64,000 nucleotides of DNA from Candidatus Babelota bacterium (GTDB lineage Bacteria > Babelota > Babeliae > Babelales > CAIQNR01). Shown here piece after piece: positions 8,546-64,000 of this stretch (positions within the stretch are counted from its first letter, which is position 1; each line of letters starts with the position of its first letter). The DNA is taken from assembly GCA_965658655.1 (NCBI GenBank), contig CBFHTA010000001.1, positions 457,005 through 521,004 of the forward strand. Direction: 5' to 3'. The notes beneath the pieces were generated by a model, which saw only the letters and a program-made list of their open reading frames with translations, was not told the origin of the DNA and searched no databases. A program made the translations under genes and the position numbers.

Positions 8546-9214
8546 TTATAATGTTTCTTCTTCAATACAATTATCTAAAAAACCATCTGCTAAACAATGA
8601 GAAACATCTGTATCTTTAGGAAGACTCAATAATGTGCGTATTGCGTCTTCAGTATCTTTCACATGATACTTTGCTGTTAGATGTGTTTTCGCCGAGCTTT
8701 TTTGATTATAGCGTTGTGAGCATATTTTGCATTTAAAGGGTTTTTCGTTGGTATGTATAAACTGATGTCTTTTGAGTTTGTACGGAGTAGTCCAACGTTT
8801 TAAACGTCCTGCTTCTGTCGGGCATAAATTACAACAAAGTATTGGTTTTGAATTGTCTGTAAAAATGGGTTTTTGTGCTTTGGCACTTGAGCCAGATTGT
8901 TTTTGTGCCATTTTAACAGTTGGTAGAAGATGAGTTCCTCTTTTTGATTTAGCGACTGCAGCTGCCATAATTATGGCATCCCTCTTCATGCTTGCATTGT
9001 TTTTTTGCACGGATGGTGGTGGAACAGGCGGAAGAGTTAGGGAATCACCCGAAGTGGATAGAGTAGCAGCTTTTATAGGAACAGCTAGGACGGTTTGAGA
9101 AATGTTTTCTTGAGTTGCTTTATGGGGATTGTTAAGATCAACAGCTGAATTAAAACTAAAAAGTGGAATTGCTAAAATTAATAAAGGGCTTATTAAGAGC
9201 GTTTGTTTATTCAT
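8546..9214 (-). CDS. Secreted C2H2 zinc-finger protein (2 fingers)
   Basis: Signal peptide; Pro/Ser-rich region; CNLC...LKRHQFIH-TNEKP-FKCKIC...KTHLTAKYH. Confidence 0.85.
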   Translation of the reverse strand: MNKQTLLISPLLILAIPLFSFNSAVDLNNPHKATQENISQTVLAVPIKAATLSTSGDSLTLPPVPPPSVQKNNASMKRDAIIMAAAVAKSKRGTHLLPTVKMAQKQSGSSAKAQKPIFTDNSKPILCCNLCPTEAGRLKRWTTPYKLKRHQFIHTNEKPFKCKICSQRYNQKSSAKTHLTAKYHVKDTEDAIRTLLSLPKDTDVSHCLADGFLDNCIEEETL

Positions 9215-21536: not shown

Positions 21537-22154
21537 TTATTGATGTGTCTTTTCTAATCTTTTAGAAGAGGTAGATTTCATAACTTGTGAGAGACTTGGA
21601 GTCCCTTTTTTTCTTTTAAAAGATGAAGAAGTTTTTTCTTGATGCTTTAAAGTTTTTTTGTGCCTTTTAAGCGAAGAGAGTATTCCAAATGTTTGATTAC
21701 AAGGAGCACATAAATAAACTTTGCTTTTTGTATGTATCCTTATATGAATTTTAAGGGCACCTTTTCGGGCAAAGGTTTTATTACAAGTATCACAAGAAAA
21801 CGGTTTCTCACCGCTATGTTTTGATTGTGTATGAAGTTTAAGGTCACCTTTTCGGGCAAAGGTTTTATTACAAGCATCACAAGGAAACGGTTTCTCACCG
21901 CTATGTACTTCTTTTCGATGTGTCATTAACCCTTTTTCTTGTGCAAATGTTTGATTGCATTCGCTGCAGCGAGCATTGATTACTTTTTCATGTGTTCTTG
22001 TATGTCTTTCCAAAGCATTACTTGTTGTGAATATTTGACTGCAGAGATTGCAAAAAAGATCTTTAGAAAAAGTTCTGTTAGAAGATGCAGATTGAACAAT
22101 AGATGTATTTGTTAAAAATAATGCGAAAATTATAACTATTAATTTTTTATTCAT
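21537..22154 (-). CDS. Secreted C2H2 zinc-finger protein (5 fingers, KRKK NLS-like)
   Basis: Signal peptide; five Cx2Cx3Fx5Lx2Hx3-5H units with SGEKP linkers. Confidence 0.92.
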   Translation of the reverse strand: MNKKLIVIIFALFLTNTSIVQSASSNRTFSKDLFCNLCSQIFTTSNALERHTRTHEKVINARCSECNQTFAQEKGLMTHRKEVHSGEKPFPCDACNKTFARKGDLKLHTQSKHSGEKPFSCDTCNKTFARKGALKIHIRIHTKSKVYLCAPCNQTFGILSSLKRHKKTLKHQEKTSSSFKRKKGTPSLSQVMKSTSSKRLEKTHQ

Positions 22155-22289: not shown

Positions 22290-22337
22290 TAAGGACGTTA
22301 CCTTGTTCCCAACCCTTAAGAGAAAAGACTCATTATT
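22290..22337 (+). repeat. Duplicate of the lysS 3' end (copy of 21494-21541)
   Basis: 46/48 nt identical by hand alignment. Confidence 0.92.
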
Positions 22338-22950
22338 TATTTGTACTTTCTAATCTTTTGAAAGAGGTAGATTTCATAGCTTGTGAGAGACCTGGAGTTT
22401 CCTTTTTTCTTTTAAGAGATAAACCTGCTATTTCTGGATGTTGTGCATTATTGTGCCTTTGCAGCCCATAGTGTCTAGTAAATACGGCGTTGCAAAGAGC
22501 GCATAAATAAGATCTGTGTTTTTTGTGTACTTCATTTATATGTCTGTTAAGAACGTTTTTTCGGCTAAATTCTTTCTTGCAGATATTACAAGAATGGGAT
22601 GCTTTTTCGCCATGTACTTCATCTGTGTGTCTTTTAAGACCCTCTTTTCGAACAAATTTTTTTGGGCAAAAACGGCAAGAATAGGATGCTTTTTCGCCAT
22701 GTATTTCATTTGTATGTCGCTTGAGACCATATTTTTCTGTAAATGTACGTGCACATTGGGTGCAACTATAATATCCTTTTTCTTCATGTGTTTTTCTATG
22801 TTCTGTAAAATCTTTATTTGTTTTAAACATTTGATTACACGTATTGCAGACAATATCTTTAGAAAAAGCTGTGTCAGAAGATGCAGATTGAACAGTAGAT
22901 GTATTTGTTAGTAATAATCCGAAAATTATAATTATTAATTTTTTATTCAT
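22333..22950 (-). CDS. Secreted C2H2 zinc-finger protein (5 fingers, KRKK NLS-like), tandem paralogue
   Basis: Same 205-aa length, similar signal peptide and C-tail as 21537-22154; GEKAS linkers. Confidence 0.92.
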   Translation of the reverse strand: MNKKLIIIIFGLLLTNTSTVQSASSDTAFSKDIVCNTCNQMFKTNKDFTEHRKTHEEKGYYSCTQCARTFTEKYGLKRHTNEIHGEKASYSCRFCPKKFVRKEGLKRHTDEVHGEKASHSCNICKKEFSRKNVLNRHINEVHKKHRSYLCALCNAVFTRHYGLQRHNNAQHPEIAGLSLKRKKETPGLSQAMKSTSFKRLESTNK

Positions 22951-59674: not shown

Positions 59675-60118
59675 ATGAAAGAAAAATTTCCTCTAATAAT
59701 ATTGTTATGTTGTTCTATGAATATTTCTTATTCAGCAAGTGTCCCAGTTTCTATTCTTGCAAAAATAGGAGTATCATTTGGGCCGGCCGGGCAAGTAGGA
59801 GCTTTTTTTGGTCCAGTAACTTTTGTAGGTGGGTTAGCTCTTGGTAGTTTTGTAACATTATTGAAAGGGAAAAAGAGTGTTAATAATGCACAAGCTCCAG
59901 GAGTGCCGACAGTACAAGACGGGTTTGTTCCTCCAAAGAGGTGGGACGGAAAAAAACATAGACATCCGATTAATGGAAAAGTTGGCTATCCTGATAAAAA
60001 AGGTAATATATGGGTTCCTACAGGTCCTGGTCCCCTTGCGCATGGAGGTCCGCATTGGGATGTGCAGACTCCTGATGGAAGAGCTAAAAATGTTTATCCT
60101 GGTGGAAAGGTAAGATAA
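59675..60118 (+). CDS. Secreted polymorphic toxin, Ntox37-like predicted RNase domain
   Basis: Signal peptide, Gly-rich hydrophobic linker, C-terminal DGFVPPKRWDG...GYPDKKGNIWVPTG...HGGPHWDVQ...NVYPGG recalled as typical of toxin-37 domains. Confidence 0.72.
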   Translation: MKEKFPLIILLCCSMNISYSASVPVSILAKIGVSFGPAGQVGAFFGPVTFVGGLALGSFVTLLKGKKSVNNAQAPGVPTVQDGFVPPKRWDGKKHRHPINGKVGYPDKKGNIWVPTGPGPLAHGGPHWDVQTPDGRAKNVYPGGKVR

Positions 60119-60412
60119 GTGAATACTACTACTCTCATTTGTAAAGATATATTTTTTTATTCTGACTTAGACGAAGCAGTTTTTTTTGAATGGATTAAAA
60201 AAATTCCTTCTATTCAAGATTGTAAAGGTGTGGCAGATGAACTTCATTTAGATGTTCAGATAGGTATGAGTGATCATGCATTACGAAACCTTATTGCACT
60301 TTTTTCTCGTTATGCAATTGAGATGAATGATTTGAAGCAATTTGTAACGGATGAGAATAGGCAATGGTTTCAGAATGAAAAAGCGTACTGGTATTCGAAT
60401 ATTTTTCAGTAA
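60119..60412 (+). CDS. Probable cognate immunity protein
   Basis: Small acidic ORF with no signal peptide, starting immediately after the toxin stop. Confidence 0.65.
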   Translation: MNTTTLICKDIFFYSDLDEAVFFEWIKKIPSIQDCKGVADELHLDVQIGMSDHALRNLIALFSRYAIEMNDLKQFVTDENRQWFQNEKAYWYSNIFQ

Positions 60413-60417
60413 AAAAG

Positions 60418-60472
60418 TTTTTAGACGCGTTGATTTTTTTCTTCGCGTCTTTTTTTCTTCTCTCTTAATTCC
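60418..60472. repeat. 55-bp direct repeat, right copy (mrdA 3' end)
   Basis: Matches 59513-59567. Confidence 0.92.
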
Positions 60473-62172
60473 ATTAATTCTTGATAATTCTTTAAAAACT
60501 CTCTTCCAATTAACATGGGCAACTTCGCATTTCCTGTATTCTCAGTAAGAACCACTAGGGTTAGGGGTGGGGACCCTCTAAAAGAAAAATTTCCTGCAAA
60601 CCAACCATGTTCTAAGAACGCTTCACCTTGCTTTCTTTTACTGAGGCCACTTGTTTGAGCAGTACTCGTTTTTGCTCTAATAATAAAGTCATCTAATGTA
60701 TTAAACATTCGTGCAGTGCCTTTGGTTACAACGGCGTGCATAGTTTGTCGTAAAAAAGCGCGTGTTTCGTATTTAATCTTTAAAGGTTCATATTGAGGGG
60801 TGCTGCTTTCTATTAATCTTGTGGAAACAAGGTATCCTGTTTCTATAGAACCTATCATGCGGGCGATTTGTAAGGGTGTGGTGAGTAAAAAACTTTGGCC
60901 GATAGAGGCTGATAATGTTTCTCCGAGCCACCATCTTTCTCCTTTAGTTTCTTGTTTCCATTCACGGGTGGGGACTAAACCGGTCCGTTCAGAAAGTACG
61001 TTGCTCGTTGCTTTTCCAAATCCGAAGATCTGTGCGTATTTTGCGAGCACGTCAATATCGAGTTTTTTTGCAATTTCATAAAATAAAATATTACATGAAT
61101 TGGCAACCGCTTGTTTTGTGGTTAATTCTCCATGTCCATAAATACGAGCACATCTAAATTTACGTTTAGCGAGTGTAACATATCCTTTGCAGTCCCATGT
61201 TGAATAGGGGTCTATAATGCCAGTTTCAATAGCTGCGCTGAGTGTGACTAGTTTGAAAATCGAGCCAGGTGGATAGCTTGCATTACAAAAACGATTTAAG
61301 AATGGTTTTTGCGCTTGTAGTTCTTGCCATTGATCAGGATTAAGTGGGTTCATGAACACATTAGGGTCAAACGTTGGACGAGAAAGAACCACTCGCAAGC
61401 TGCCGTCACGTGGGTCCATTAAAATTAATGTTCCAGTTCGATCTTCAGGAAAAGTTCTTTCAGCAATTCGTTGTAGAGATAAATCAAGCGTAGTGGTAAT
61501 ATCTTTGCCGCTTAAAGTCTCTTCTGTTTCGTATTCGGCTAGATGGGTTCCTACCGAATTTATAATTCGGAGTAATGAGCCTTTTTTTCCACGCAGCTGT
61601 TCCTCGAATAATCTCTCGAGTCCCATACGGCCTTCATAGGAAGGTCCTAGGTGCCCCAGGTAACCTAATACATGGCTAGCAATAGATTTGTAGGGGTACA
61701 GTCTTTTGAACTTGGTTTCGATACTGATATTTTTTTCGTCAGAGAAAAGTTCCGCAATTTTGCTTAGCTGTTCAAAAGAAACATCAGTAGCAAGTAAGTG
61801 TTTTTTAAAGTGCTTTTCGGTATGGGTAATAAGAGATTGTTTTTCAGTGAAATCTTTTTTGGTTACTATGCCTAGTTGCTTTATAATGTTTAGTTGTTCT
61901 TGTGTTAATTTCTTTTGCCCTGTTCCTTGCCAATAGACAGCTGTGATAGGTTTATTAGTCGCCAGTATATTGCCTCTACAGTCAAGTATATTGCCTCGCA
62001 ACGATAATAAGTTTTCGGTCCGAGTAAAATTCTTTTTGCTTTGCTCAAAGAGTGTTTTGCCTTGATTGATCTGTAAATAAAAAAGACGGCCAACAATAAT
62101 ACACAAGGCCAATGTACACACTTTAAGTAAAAATAGGTTCTTTGATTCAAATGTTCTTTGGGCCGGAATCAT
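60421..62172 (-). CDS. mrdA: Class B penicillin-binding protein 2
   Basis: N-terminal TM; RGNILD; SIFK, SCN and KTS motifs. Confidence 0.9.
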   Translation of the reverse strand: MIPAQRTFESKNLFLLKVCTLALCIIVGRLFYLQINQGKTLFEQSKKNFTRTENLLSLRGNILDCRGNILATNKPITAVYWQGTGQKKLTQEQLNIIKQLGIVTKKDFTEKQSLITHTEKHFKKHLLATDVSFEQLSKIAELFSDEKNISIETKFKRLYPYKSIASHVLGYLGHLGPSYEGRMGLERLFEEQLRGKKGSLLRIINSVGTHLAEYETEETLSGKDITTTLDLSLQRIAERTFPEDRTGTLILMDPRDGSLRVVLSRPTFDPNVFMNPLNPDQWQELQAQKPFLNRFCNASYPPGSIFKLVTLSAAIETGIIDPYSTWDCKGYVTLAKRKFRCARIYGHGELTTKQAVANSCNILFYEIAKKLDIDVLAKYAQIFGFGKATSNVLSERTGLVPTREWKQETKGERWWLGETLSASIGQSFLLTTPLQIARMIGSIETGYLVSTRLIESSTPQYEPLKIKYETRAFLRQTMHAVVTKGTARMFNTLDDFIIRAKTSTAQTSGLSKRKQGEAFLEHGWFAGNFSFRGSPPLTLVVLTENTGNAKLPMLIGREFLKNYQELMELREKKKRREEKNQRV

Positions 62173-63086
62173 TCAGTGTCTGTCATATCATTAAAAGGAT
62201 GGAGGGTATCGCACATTTCTGCCAGCTGTGCAGAGGTAACATGAGTATATTTTTCTGTACTCGCTAAACTTTGATGCCCCAATAATTCTTGCACTACACG
62301 TAAGTCAGTTCCTTGATTAAGCATATGTGTTGCAAAAGAGTGACGTAATTTGTGAGGTGTTACTTTTTTACCACCTTTTAAGAATTTTCTAAACATTTCT
62401 ATGATGCGCTGTACAGAGCGAACATCGAGAGGTCCTGTTCGATAATTAACGAAAAGTTTTTCGTTCAAATTCAATGGTTTCGGACGTTCTTTTTTTAAAT
62501 ATTCTTTAATACGCTTTTGTGCTTTGCTTCCAAAGAGAACCATCCGCTCTTTGCGGCCTTTACCAGTGATTTTAATTACTTTGTTTTCAATGTCTAAGTT
62601 ACCCATGGTAATACTGCATAGCTCAGAACACCGCATTCCGCTTGCATATAAAAGTTCAAAAATAGTTTTATCTCGAATCGGTTTTTTTGACGGTAATTCA
62701 GAATCTTTCACTGTATCGAGCAGATAAAAAACTTCGTCAACACTTAAGTAAACGGGAAGTTTTTTGTCTACACGAGGGCGTTTGAGTTTGAATGAAACGT
62801 CGAGACCTACAGATCGTAAGAAACGTTCAAATGATTTAAAACACGAAATTTTTCGAGCTACCGAACTGGTATCTATTTTCTTGTAAAAAAGGCTTACAAA
62901 GTAGCGTTCAAGTGCTCGCCTTAAAACTTCTTGCTTTTTGTCGTTATTGTTGATTTGGAGCCAGAATTGGTTGAATAACTTGAGGTCGCTTTCATACGAT
63001 CTTTGAGTGTTTGTACTTAGGTTTTTTTCTACCTTTATATAGGCTAGAAAGTCTTTTTTATACTTTTCAAATGTTTTAATATTCAT
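62169..63086 (-). CDS. xerC: Tyrosine recombinase XerC/XerD
   Basis: SGMRCSE, GKGRKER, HKLRHSFATH, LLGH, EKYTH. Confidence 0.85.
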   Translation of the reverse strand: MNIKTFEKYKKDFLAYIKVEKNLSTNTQRSYESDLKLFNQFWLQINNNDKKQEVLRRALERYFVSLFYKKIDTSSVARKISCFKSFERFLRSVGLDVSFKLKRPRVDKKLPVYLSVDEVFYLLDTVKDSELPSKKPIRDKTIFELLYASGMRCSELCSITMGNLDIENKVIKITGKGRKERMVLFGSKAQKRIKEYLKKERPKPLNLNEKLFVNYRTGPLDVRSVQRIIEMFRKFLKGGKKVTPHKLRHSFATHMLNQGTDLRVVQELLGHQSLASTEKYTHVTSAQLAEMCDTLHPFNDMTDTE

Positions 63087-63254
63087 TACATTCCTTGAGC
63101 TTATTTAAGCTCAGAGTACTGAATGAGAGTTATAAGTGCAACTGTTATGATTTATAGACTTATTTAAGCTTATAAATTACAAGCAGACCCTGTTGACTAA
63201 TAGAGATTATTTGAGTAAATTATTCTTACAATAAACTTTAATAGAGAGGTTGTG

Positions 63255-63962
63255 ATGAATAAAGTATGGATGTTTGGATTACTTTTTATTTCAATAGGGC
63301 AATTGAATGGAATGGAGACTGGTTTCAATGTACTACCATTAGAAGGTCTGATAGATAAAGATGGGGCGATGTTTGGCTTAGATATGTTGAATGAAGAGGA
63401 TGCATCTCAGATTTTAACTGCGTTGGCTTCTTTTCAAGAAGTAGAGATACCTCACACTCAGCAAAGTAGTGAACAATCTTTGGTTGTAGGGGCAGTAAGT
63501 ACAGCATCAGATAAAAAGCGTAAAAGAACTCACACAGAGGAAGGATCTTATGTATGTGGAATTTGTCATAAAGGTTTTAAGAAAAAGTGTAATTTAAAAA
63601 CACATATAAGAGTTCATACGGGGGAAAAACCTTTTGTATGTGAGATTTGTGATAAAAGTTTTACGGAAAAGAGTAGTTTAAAAACACATATAAGAATTCA
63701 TACAGGGGAAAAACCTTTTGTATGTGAAATTTGTGATACAGGTTTTACGCAATCTAGTAATTTAAAAAAACATGAAAGAATCCATACAGGGGAAAGGCCT
63801 TATAGGTGTGAAATTTGTGATACAGGTTTTACGGAAAAGAGTGGTTTAACAATGCATATAAGAGTTCATACAGGTGAGAGACCTTATGAGTGTGAAATTT
63901 GTCATAGAAGTTTTAAGCAATTTGGTAATTTATCAAGACATAAAAAAGTACATGAAAAATAA
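63255..63962 (+). CDS. Secreted C2H2 zinc-finger protein (5 Kruppel-type fingers, KKRKR NLS-like, acidic N-region)
   Basis: Signal peptide MNKVWMFGLLFISIGQLNG; five 28-aa fingers with TGEKP/TGERP linkers (84-bp repeats). Confidence 0.95.
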   Translation: MNKVWMFGLLFISIGQLNGMETGFNVLPLEGLIDKDGAMFGLDMLNEEDASQILTALASFQEVEIPHTQQSSEQSLVVGAVSTASDKKRKRTHTEEGSYVCGICHKGFKKKCNLKTHIRVHTGEKPFVCEICDKSFTEKSSLKTHIRIHTGEKPFVCEICDTGFTQSSNLKKHERIHTGERPYRCEICDTGFTEKSGLTMHIRVHTGERPYECEICHRSFKQFGNLSRHKKVHEK

Positions 63963-63983
63963 ATAGGTAATAAGGAGGTTATA

Positions 63984-64000
63984 ATGAATAAAGTATGGAT
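63984..64000 (+). CDS. Start of a tandem paralogue of 63255-63962 (truncated by window edge)
   Basis: AAGGAGG RBS then ATGAATAAAGTATGGAT, identical to the first 17 nt of the preceding gene. Confidence 0.7.

Follow-up and report, generated by a model that had tools for sequence, protein, structure and literature searches.

Tandem genes for leader-bearing C2H2 zinc-finger proteins, candidate host-directed effectors, in a Candidatus Babelota bacterium

The Kruppel-type poly-C2H2 factors of eukaryotes consist of 28-residue C-X2-C-X12-H-X3-H units that have an F/L core, fold as beta-beta-alpha, are joined by TGEKP-type linkers and vary at positions -1, +3 and +6 of the recognition helix. Here we describe a family of bacterial genes, family A, the products of which are alike in all these respects, the fold being a predicted one. 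Its first member, gene A1, lies close to the end of a stretch of 64,000 nucleotides (nt; the whole stretch is called the window below) from a Candidatus Babelota bacterium (assembly GCA_965658655.1, contig CBFHTA010000001.1, positions 457,005 to 521,004 of the forward strand). Unlike the eukaryotic factors, family A is bacterial, stands behind a Shine-Dalgarno sequence, has an export-type leader, encodes only four to seven fingers per protein and is organized as operon-like tandem genes. The original prediction, made from the letters of the window, had taken A1 for a secreted protein built like a eukaryotic transcription activator and exported to reprogram the transcription of a protist host. 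With the reservations given below, we lean towards the reading that family A encodes Sec-exported, host-directed, sequence-specific DNA-binding effectors, a putative zinc-finger counterpart of the TAL effectors.

In its proposed logic the family is like the TAL effectors of Xanthomonas and Ralstonia, which also have recombining, specificity-diversified DNA-reading repeats, a basic motif, an acidic segment and multiple copies. There is, however, no homology: the repeat is here a 28-residue zinc finger and there a 34-residue (33-35) TAL repeat, the leader is of the Sec type and not a type III signal, the acidic part is N-terminal and the host is presumably a protist. Membership in the TAL effectors was rejected, as no TAL family was among the Pfam matches and no FHIPEP was found, and the proposed resemblance is functional only. 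Designer zinc-finger activators are fusions of a finger array with a nuclear signal and VP16/VP64, and by what is generally known of them they share with family A an acidic hydrophobic motif, a basic nuclear motif and a TGEKP-linked array. Family A differs from them in being natural and bacterial, in its export-type leader and in the weak conservation of its putative activation segment. No KRAB, BTB, SCAN or SET domain was among the Pfam matches of A1. Membership in the KRAB, BTB or SCAN groups was rejected on this ground, with residues 1-96 being predicted as disordered and having relatives only within the genus.

Bacterial proteins with a Cys2His2 zinc site are known from Ros/MucR, in which the site serves DNA binding. 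The Ros/MucR domain is, in contrast, single, larger and not repeated, it comes with neither a TGEKP array nor a leader, and it acts on bacterial promoters. ROS_MUCR was not among the 21 Pfam families found at E ≤ 0.01 and a multi-finger array was found instead, so this membership was rejected as well. Alike in lineage and export logic, the ankyrin proteins of Chromulinavorax destructans carry eukaryote-type repeats behind a Sec signal peptide, are expanded and are presumed to manipulate the host (PMC6561590, in the passages at hand), whereas the domain of family A is a finger array and not a protein-binding repeat. The same passages name no zinc-finger proteins, and their sole mention of zinc concerns a metal transporter. 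In the passages at hand on Endozoicomonadaceae, Kistimonas is noted as enriched in zinc-finger proteins (PMC12491435) and a 'Zinc-finger double domain' is listed for Endozoicomonas (PMC9743535), in both cases at the domain level only. The literature search, which covered few subscription journals and left supplements aside, returned no paper that describes a nucleomodulin of the finger type or the export of finger arrays by Dependentiae, and no co-mention of 'C2H2' with 'Dependentiae' or of 'candidate phylum TM6' with 'zinc finger'; the one co-mention of 'Dependentiae' with 'zinc finger' was in a review of methyltransferases.

The fingers and the tandem array

All five fingers of A1 (5/5) follow the C-X2-C-X12-H-X3-H pattern, and the linkers between them (TGEKP, TGEKP, TGERP and TGERP, in order) are all of the TGEKP type (4/4). 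Pfam analysis assigned zf-C2H2 with an E-value of 1.6e-32 over five stretches and zf-H2C2_2 with an E-value of 8.9e-42, the bit scores being 110.5 for PF00096 (curated cut-off 25.2) and 139.5 for PF13465 (curated cut-off 40). At the DNA level, Tandem Repeats Finder reported an 84-nt period with 4.7 copies and 81% matches at 63524-63915. The AlphaFold2 prediction, calculated from an alignment of six paralogues, showed five strand-strand-helix fingers at a predicted local distance difference test score (pLDDT) above 90. The closest solved structure found by phmmer was the DNA-bound ZNF568 with an E-value of 2.6e-76, followed by PRDM9, CTCF, the designed Aart and Zif268. Judged by these matches, the fingers are of the eukaryotic poly-finger type and belong fully to the classical C2H2 family. 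The recognition helices KKCNLKT, EKSSLKT, QSSNLKK, EKSGLTM and QFGNLSR agree exactly with those read by the original prediction; under the canonical finger code, QxxNLxR helices would typically read GAA.

To the extent that variation reflects function, the family speaks for DNA reading. Among the 31 fingers of the six full family-A copies, the two cysteines, the two histidines and the core phenylalanine were invariant (31/31) and a leucine was found at helix position +4 in 29/31. The entropy maxima were located at positions +6 (3.02 bits), +3 (2.73) and -1 (2.50), and these three positions hold the base-contacting residues in Zif268-type fingers. Putative DNA binding is backed indirectly, by the helix variability and by the DNA-bound state of the nearest structures. 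Individual fingers were often most closely akin to fingers at other places of other copies: finger 1 of A3 and finger 3 of A7 are 91% identical at the nt level, finger 3 of A3 and finger 3 of A6 99%, and finger 2 of A7 and finger 1 of A1 87%, while the last finger pairs with the last finger of another copy in 4/6 copies. This non-collinear kinship indicates that the arrays have been rebuilt by recombination between the 84-nt units.

The window ends where contig C1 of the assembly ends, only 17 nt into the next paralogue. The original prediction had suspected a tandem array and had proposed to look for more copies in the sequence that follows; the array was confirmed and the copies were found on contig C2. 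At the start of this contig lie the final 43 codons of a copy, which cover KKRKR and a single finger. Five complete paralogues come next, their lengths being 263, 236, 207, 296 and 212 amino acids (aa) and their finger numbers six, five, four, seven and four, respectively. These paralogues share one strand, the 21-nt spacer with AAGGAGG recurs ahead of every one of them, and the array spans 1-3897 of C2, beyond which bacterial genes continue (236 kb). Family A hence amounts to six full copies, one tail and one start. These represent at least seven genes, because the start at the end of C1 and the tail on C2 may be one gene, and the gap may hold more. The terminator scan found no terminator-like sites in 62900-64000, and this terminator-free stretch is consistent with an operon-like arrangement of the family. 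Both sides of the assembly break at the finger array fall in repeats. Finger arrays are probably under-assembled in metagenome-assembled genomes (MAGs) and their copy numbers underestimated, because the corresponding contig of a related genome, G001, likewise ends inside its array. Contig C1 contains 99 N.

The source assembly consists of 928,713 bp in four contigs, is 95% complete and has a GC content of 37%. A1 sits at the end of the 521-kb contig C1 beside the genes for PBP2 and a XerC/D-type recombinase, the latter matching Phage_integrase (E 5.8e-45) and Phage_int_SAM_1 (E 6.4e-11). The order PBP2-xerC-finger gene recurs in G001, which is another species of the same genus and the finger gene of which has a homologous leader, and the xerC-A1 junction was accepted because of this recurrence. 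In other relatives, finger genes are located inside single-contig genomes, for example that of G033:C1 with 1.23 Mb. The GC content of the six full family-A genes is 33-35.5%, while the mean of the coding sequences (CDS) is 37.2% (SD 2.8). Family A consists of AT-shifted accessory genes and not of foreign high-GC DNA. That A1 is a bacterial gene, as had been argued from its ribosome-binding site, its lack of introns and its neighbour xerC, is borne out by the synteny in G001, the 21-nt spacers with a Shine-Dalgarno sequence, the absence of introns and the genome-like GC content. The coordinates of A1, its parts and other features of the window are given in Table 1. The single promoter-like site upstream of the array is a weak one; the promoter scan yielded two such sites as compared with 4.5 ± 2.3 in shuffled sequences, which is not above chance.

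Table 1. Positions of gene A1, its parts, its surroundings and further leader-bearing finger genes within the window
Feature	Positions	Strand	Remarks
Gene A1	63255..63962	+	ATG at 63255, stop codon (included) at 63960-63962; 235-aa protein with leader, acidic disordered segment, KKRKR and five C2H2 fingers
Shine-Dalgarno-like GAGAGG	63244..63249	+	5 nt ahead of the A1 ATG; AAGGAGG at the same distance in the downstream copies
Export-type leader	63255..63311	+	Codons 1-19: MNK, 12-residue hydrophobic core, QLNG
Net-acidic, hydrophobic-studded segment, predicted disordered	63312..63506	+	Residues 20-84; short helix 47-58
KKRKR	63513..63527	+	Residues 87-91; fits the monopartite nuclear-localization pattern K-K/R-x-K/R
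Five tandem C2H2 fingers	63549..63953	+	Residues 99-233; 84-nt DNA period
Intergenic spacer, 21 nt	63963..63983	+	AAGGAGG at 63972-63978
Start of next paralogue, A2	63984..64000	+	ATG at 63984; 17 nt identical to the first 17 of A1
Promoter-like TTGACT-17-TAAATT	63193..63221	+	Weak; no other candidate ahead of the array; within the 168 nt that separate xerC from A1
xerC/D-type tyrosine recombinase	62169..63086	-	Divergent neighbour of the array; overlaps the PBP2 start
PBP2	60421..62172	-	Pfam Transpeptidase, E 1e-44
Family B copy 1	21537..22154	-	205 aa; leader ending VQSA; five fingers directly behind; C-terminal KRKK
Family B copy 2	22333..22950	-	205 aa; same build as copy 1; Pfam zf-C2H2, E 1.7e-20
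Third leader-bearing protein	8546..9214	-	222 aa; one or two C2H2-type fingers; zf-H2C2_2, E 5.5e-07, below the family cut-off

The N-terminal module and a possible route to the host

Each of the sequence features on which the original prediction was built (leader, acidic string, KKRKR, fingers, linkers and helices) is present in A1, and its acidic/hydrophobic string corresponds exactly to residues 29-64. The leader was assessed with a crude home-made n-h-c rule. The A1 leader passes this rule with a candidate cleavage site after G15 or G19. It is invariant or nearly so in 6/6 full paralogues, with synonymous differences near 0 across the first 20 codons, and it is conserved in the G001 orthologue and in P0004 and P0005. 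No other part is homogenized across the family-A paralogues, as the N-terminal module beyond the leader shows a synonymous divergence (dS) of 0.27-0.39 between two subtypes. By this comparison, the leader is homogenized or strongly constrained and the acidic segment is not. The proposed export leader can be called plausible, with SecA and LepB encoded in the genome and the crude rule passed by 13/13 of its C2H2-pattern open reading frames (ORFs).

Residues 20-84 of A1 hold 11 acidic (D+E) and one basic (K+R) residue and have a net charge of -10, while that of the finger region is +10. In the AlphaFold2 model, residues 1-96 scored below pLDDT 50 with one short helix at 47-58. The acidic segment contains F-G-L-D-M-L, which we take to resemble the VP16 core F-D-L-D-M-L. 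The KKRKR motif is kept in 5/6 full paralogues, and the truncated copy at the start of C2 has it as well.

The 98-residue N-terminal module as a whole has its relatives within one genus only. When residues 1-98 were used in a word-based protein search, two paralogues from the same genome and no other relative were retrieved among 16 candidates. A profile of the module searched over 16 same-family genomes gave matches solely in the source genome (G000) and G001, and over 1.84 billion representatives it gave three matches, none of them outside the genus: one of the family's own paralogues, a protein of 183 aa that combines the family-A leader with two degenerate fingers, and a fragment of 44 aa. 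The search of the ESM Atlas with residues 20-98 produced no usable match.

With regard to export, the source genome encodes SecA (E 6.5e-131), signal peptidase I/LepB (E 2.3e-32), two secretins in frames of 882 and 917 aa (E 1.4e-36 and 3.3e-33) and one GspE/PilB-type ATPase (E 5.5e-136). In the same genome, at 95% completeness, neither a VirB4-type marker of type IV secretion nor the FHIPEP export-gate marker of type III secretion was found. The gene content therefore allows a two-step route, Sec first and then a secretin channel or vesicles.

We propose the following sequence of events. The protein is made in the bacterium, in line with the bacterial gene context and ribosome-binding sites, and would then be exported by Sec and its leader cut by signal peptidase I, as the leader-like N-terminus, SecA and LepB suggest. 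Exit from the cell may follow the secretin-based, type II-like route or occur through vesicles. The mature protein, with a predicted size of about 24 kDa in the case of A1, would next enter the host nucleus, for which KKRKR and the small size would be favourable; given the size limit of the nuclear pore, a protein of about 24 kDa in the host cytoplasm could reach the nucleus with or without KKRKR. There, the five TGEKP-linked fingers would read about 15 bp of host DNA, and the paralogues with their four to seven shuffled fingers would address different host sites. In the last and weakest step, the acidic, hydrophobic-studded N-terminal segment may recruit the host transcription machinery. This activator role, the weakest element of the whole proposal, is suggested by the disorder predicted for the segment, its net charge of -10 and the likeness of F-G-L-D-M-L to the VP16 core. 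It would be equally simple to regard the acidic part as a mask of the basic fingers (+10) until export.

Leader-plus-finger genes in the source genome, its relatives and other bacteria

The FtsH protein encoded in the window is 70% identical over its full length to FtsH of a Candidatus Babeliales bacterium MAG, and 51-54% identical to those of an Endozoicomonas and of a Dehalococcoidia MAG. Babeliales are placed by NCBI in Candidatus Babelota (Dependentiae/TM6) and are intracellular parasites. Their cultured relative Chromulinavorax destructans is described, in the passages at hand, as having a 1.17-Mb genome in which 44% of the CDS and 78% of the ankyrin proteins carry signal peptides, as replicating in the host cytoplasm, reorganizing the host mitochondria and degrading the host nucleus late in infection, and Sec export and vesicles have been proposed for it (PMC6561590). 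The source genome is in agreement with it in being small, and the crude leader rule marks 42% of the ORFs here. Two DNA datasets of one study, labelled marine plankton metagenome, contained 0.91 and 0.79 of the sampled words; they are not independent support, because the source sample may be among them. We conclude with moderate confidence that the organism is a Babeliales-type parasite of a marine protist. With a Babeliales MAG as the nearest named relative, the protist host claimed by the original prediction is a plausible one.

The 13 C2H2-pattern ORFs of the source genome represent, owing to paralogy, about four independent families: the six full genes of family A, the two of family B, the single gene at 8546-9214 and a group of four on C2. 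Family B, located between lysS and a recJ-type gene, comprises two genes, the first of which matches zf-H2C2_2 (E 1.9e-24) and zf-C2H2 (E 7e-22). Elsewhere in this genome, four adjacent leader-bearing genes of 188-253 aa with one C2H2-pattern match each were observed on the reverse strand at C2:170103-173229. They make up another putatively exported zinc-finger-like family, and an acidic tail at the C-terminus is common to two of them (236 and 240 aa).

Matches to zf-H2C2_2 were found in 22/61 sampled genomes including the source genome, in 10/61 above the family cut-off, and in 0/14 control genomes. They occurred in 12/15 same-family genomes, which are streamlined (0.7-1.1 Mb), and in 7/21 sampled families of the order. 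From nine relatives 20 loci were taken, and 24 ORFs encoding three or more fingers were obtained from 14 of these loci, in seven genomes. When only ORFs with a complete 5' end were considered, 20/22 passed the leader rule, and the other two had an internal methionine followed by a hydrophobic stretch. Acidic residues exceeded basic ones in the leader-to-finger stretch of 19/24 ORFs.

In a same-family relative, L094 (G007:C28, 2567-8053) consists of six consecutive leader-plus-finger genes, the products of which have 5-9 fingers. In four cases the gene begins within the preceding one, with an overlap of 8 nt, and some of the proteins have strongly acidic, Trp/Phe/Leu-studded stretches ahead of the fingers. 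The loci L095-L098 (relative G013, contigs C69, C43, C67 and C73) encode much longer leader-bearing finger proteins of 518-1126 aa with up to 12 fingers, which are apparently split into clusters, and with acidic low-complexity N-terminal regions of 180-260 residues.

Two scans of 185,579 species genomes extended the comparison beyond Babelota. The finger-array scan gave 597 candidate stretches, of which 546 were confirmed. The best 80 of these stretches (67 loci) were mostly from animal-associated Endozoicomonadaceae, in addition to variously labelled small-genome MAGs. The leader-based scan gave 85 pattern matches, none of which was confirmed. Like family A, the Endozoicomonadaceae proteins carry TGEKP-linked arrays of the eukaryotic type, their bacteria are host-associated, and the gene copies often stand in tandem. 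They differ in that, among 14 loci sampled from the 67, the genes labelled Endozoicomonadaceae had no leader by the crude rule and their fingers begin either at residue 5-8 or behind an unrelated N-terminus of 100-140 aa; leader-bearing finger genes among the 14 were in low-GC MAGs. One public MAG of uncertain phylum has five tandem leader-bearing finger genes (L064, 470-5107) of the same build as family A; three of them have a leader in common and also, before 5-12 fingers, a basic motif in two parts (RKR..., then KRQKK). Small low-GC genomes with leader-type finger genes that are labelled Bacteroidota or Pseudomonadota were also seen (L019, L026, L043, L066 and L071), and their labels or bins may be unreliable; in one of them, of about 0.9 Mb, the best FtsH match had an E-value of only 2e-9.

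Apart from finger genes, the window contains at 59675-60118 (+) a gene for a 147-aa leader-bearing protein whose C-terminal part is a Bacterial toxin 37 (Ntox37) domain (Pfam E 5.7e-15), directly followed at 60119-60412 (+) by a 97-aa ORF that had no Pfam match. The layout of the pair resembles that of a small polymorphic toxin and its immunity gene, here in a reduced parasite genome.

Alternative explanations and meaning

A number of observations weigh against the reading of family A as exported, host-directed DNA-binding effectors, some of them in general and others through the alternatives that follow. The canonical linker [TS]GE[KR]P was found at only 14/25 positions across the six paralogues, the remaining linkers being near variants such as TDERP and KDERP. 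The leader rule marked 335/800 ORFs (42%). The secretins may serve pili only, and eight to fourteen cysteines per protein would have to cross a possibly oxidizing periplasm.

The alternative that survives best, although we regard it as rather unlikely, is that the proteins are exported and host-directed and are not activators. They would then bind host RNA, proteins, organelle DNA or the DNA of co-infecting viruses, or act as repressors or roadblocks, and the acidic segment would be an intramolecular charge mask that keeps the fingers off the bacterium's own DNA before export. The charges of -10 in residues 20-84 and +10 in the fingers would indeed roughly cancel. The acidic segment is compositionally unexceptional and weakly constrained: by a home-made acidic/hydrophobic window score it ranked only within the top 1-20% when compared with 322 controls that carry a leader, and its ratio of nonsynonymous to synonymous divergence (dN/dS) was about 0.75-1.1 between the subtypes. 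Because family A reaches only the top 1-20%, the score was discarded as strong evidence. Family B scores low and has no acidic segment, and in several proteins of relatives the fingers likewise follow directly behind the leader. Of the activation-type segment that had been proposed for A1, the presence and the charge were thus upheld, while its rank, its dN/dS near 1 and its absence from family B speak against the proposed role. The nuclear-localization-like KKRKR fared similarly, as it is present in A1 and most copies and at the same time degenerate in paralogue A4 (KKHER) and absent from the orthologue in G001; a K/R cluster ahead of the fingers was seen in only 7/24 ORFs of relatives. The behaviour of Chromulinavorax, which alters mitochondria and degrades the host nucleus late (PMC6561590, in the passages at hand), would also suit a target other than nuclear genes. 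On the other side, the concentration of variability at the three base-contacting helix positions and the TGEKP-type linkers, 4/4 in A1, favour sequence-specific DNA reading, and the best structural matches are finger arrays bound to double-stranded DNA. In addition, a small basic mature protein would enter the nucleus easily by what is known of the nuclear pore.

It is improbable, and more so than the preceding alternative, that the proteins stay with the bacterium, the N-terminus either anchoring them uncleaved in the membrane or targeting them to the periplasm and the fingers serving envelope scaffolding, zinc handling or the binding of imported nucleic acid. The ambiguity of the A1 cleavage site, after G15 or G19, would be in accordance with this explanation, and with 42% of the ORFs passing the leader rule many leader-bearing proteins must be residents of the envelope. 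Furthermore, the searches for VirB4 and FHIPEP revealed no dedicated system for effector injection. However, the finger type was seen in 0/14 control genomes and is, among prokaryotes, concentrated in host-associated lineages, and the rapid change of copy number, the shuffling of fingers and the diversification of helices fit a host-facing arms race better than a housekeeping role. The periplasm would also be an unfavourable place for fingers, which need reduced cysteines and zinc.

We consider it very improbable that family A consists of recently acquired, drifting genes of eukaryotic origin that have no maintained function. Drift would account for the N-terminal dN/dS of about 1 and for the restriction of the N-terminal module to one genus. 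It would also agree with a codon usage that deviates from the rest of the genome: the GC content at third codon positions (GC3) is 15-20% in family A and 27.2% (SD 4.5) in the genome, and AGA makes up 78% and 27% of the Arg codons, respectively. These deviations could be due to recent acquisition or to weak expression. Nevertheless, 6/6 full copies keep open frames, the zinc ligands are intact in 31/31 fingers, the leader, the spacer and the Shine-Dalgarno sequence are conserved, and the same build is found in 12/15 same-family genomes of a streamlined lineage.

That an assembly or binning artefact joined eukaryotic host DNA to the end of a bacterial contig, as might be suspected from the location of A1 at the very end of C1 and the break of the assembly at the array, has a practically negligible probability and was rejected, in view of the same junction in an independent genome of another species, the continuation of C2 into bacterial genes, the ribosome-binding sites, spacers, missing introns and genome-like GC content, and three further leader-plus-finger loci that lie amid core genes, lysS and recJ among them.

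The preferred reading thus remains that of exported DNA-binding effectors directed at the host. In its widest form, which we put forward only as a tentative and so far doubtful possibility, it would mean that Babeliales/Dependentiae deploy rapidly shuffling, Sec-exported poly-zinc-finger transcription factors, which would be nature's equivalent of the engineered finger-activator fusions and a second, independent instance of TAL-effector-like programmable control of host genes. Even without an activator role, the conserved leader-plus-finger build, present in 20/22 complete genes of relatives, is unexplained and worth study. If the proteins reach the host nucleus and bind DNA there, they would form a new class of bacterial host-reprogramming effector, built from the commonest DNA-reading module of eukaryotes and distributed across an entire order of protist parasites about which little is known. 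For Dependentiae, the known effectors of which are mainly ankyrin proteins, this would provide a concrete and testable mechanism, and it would imply more than one origin of programmable DNA-binding effectors among bacteria. The rules of recognition could then also be studied on natural finger arrays that are compact and have been shaped by selection. The DNA targets could in principle be readable from the helices, which could allow the prediction of target genes and of the unknown protist hosts of uncultured parasites, and because the fingers shuffle and their base-contacting positions vary, both predictions would be directly testable.

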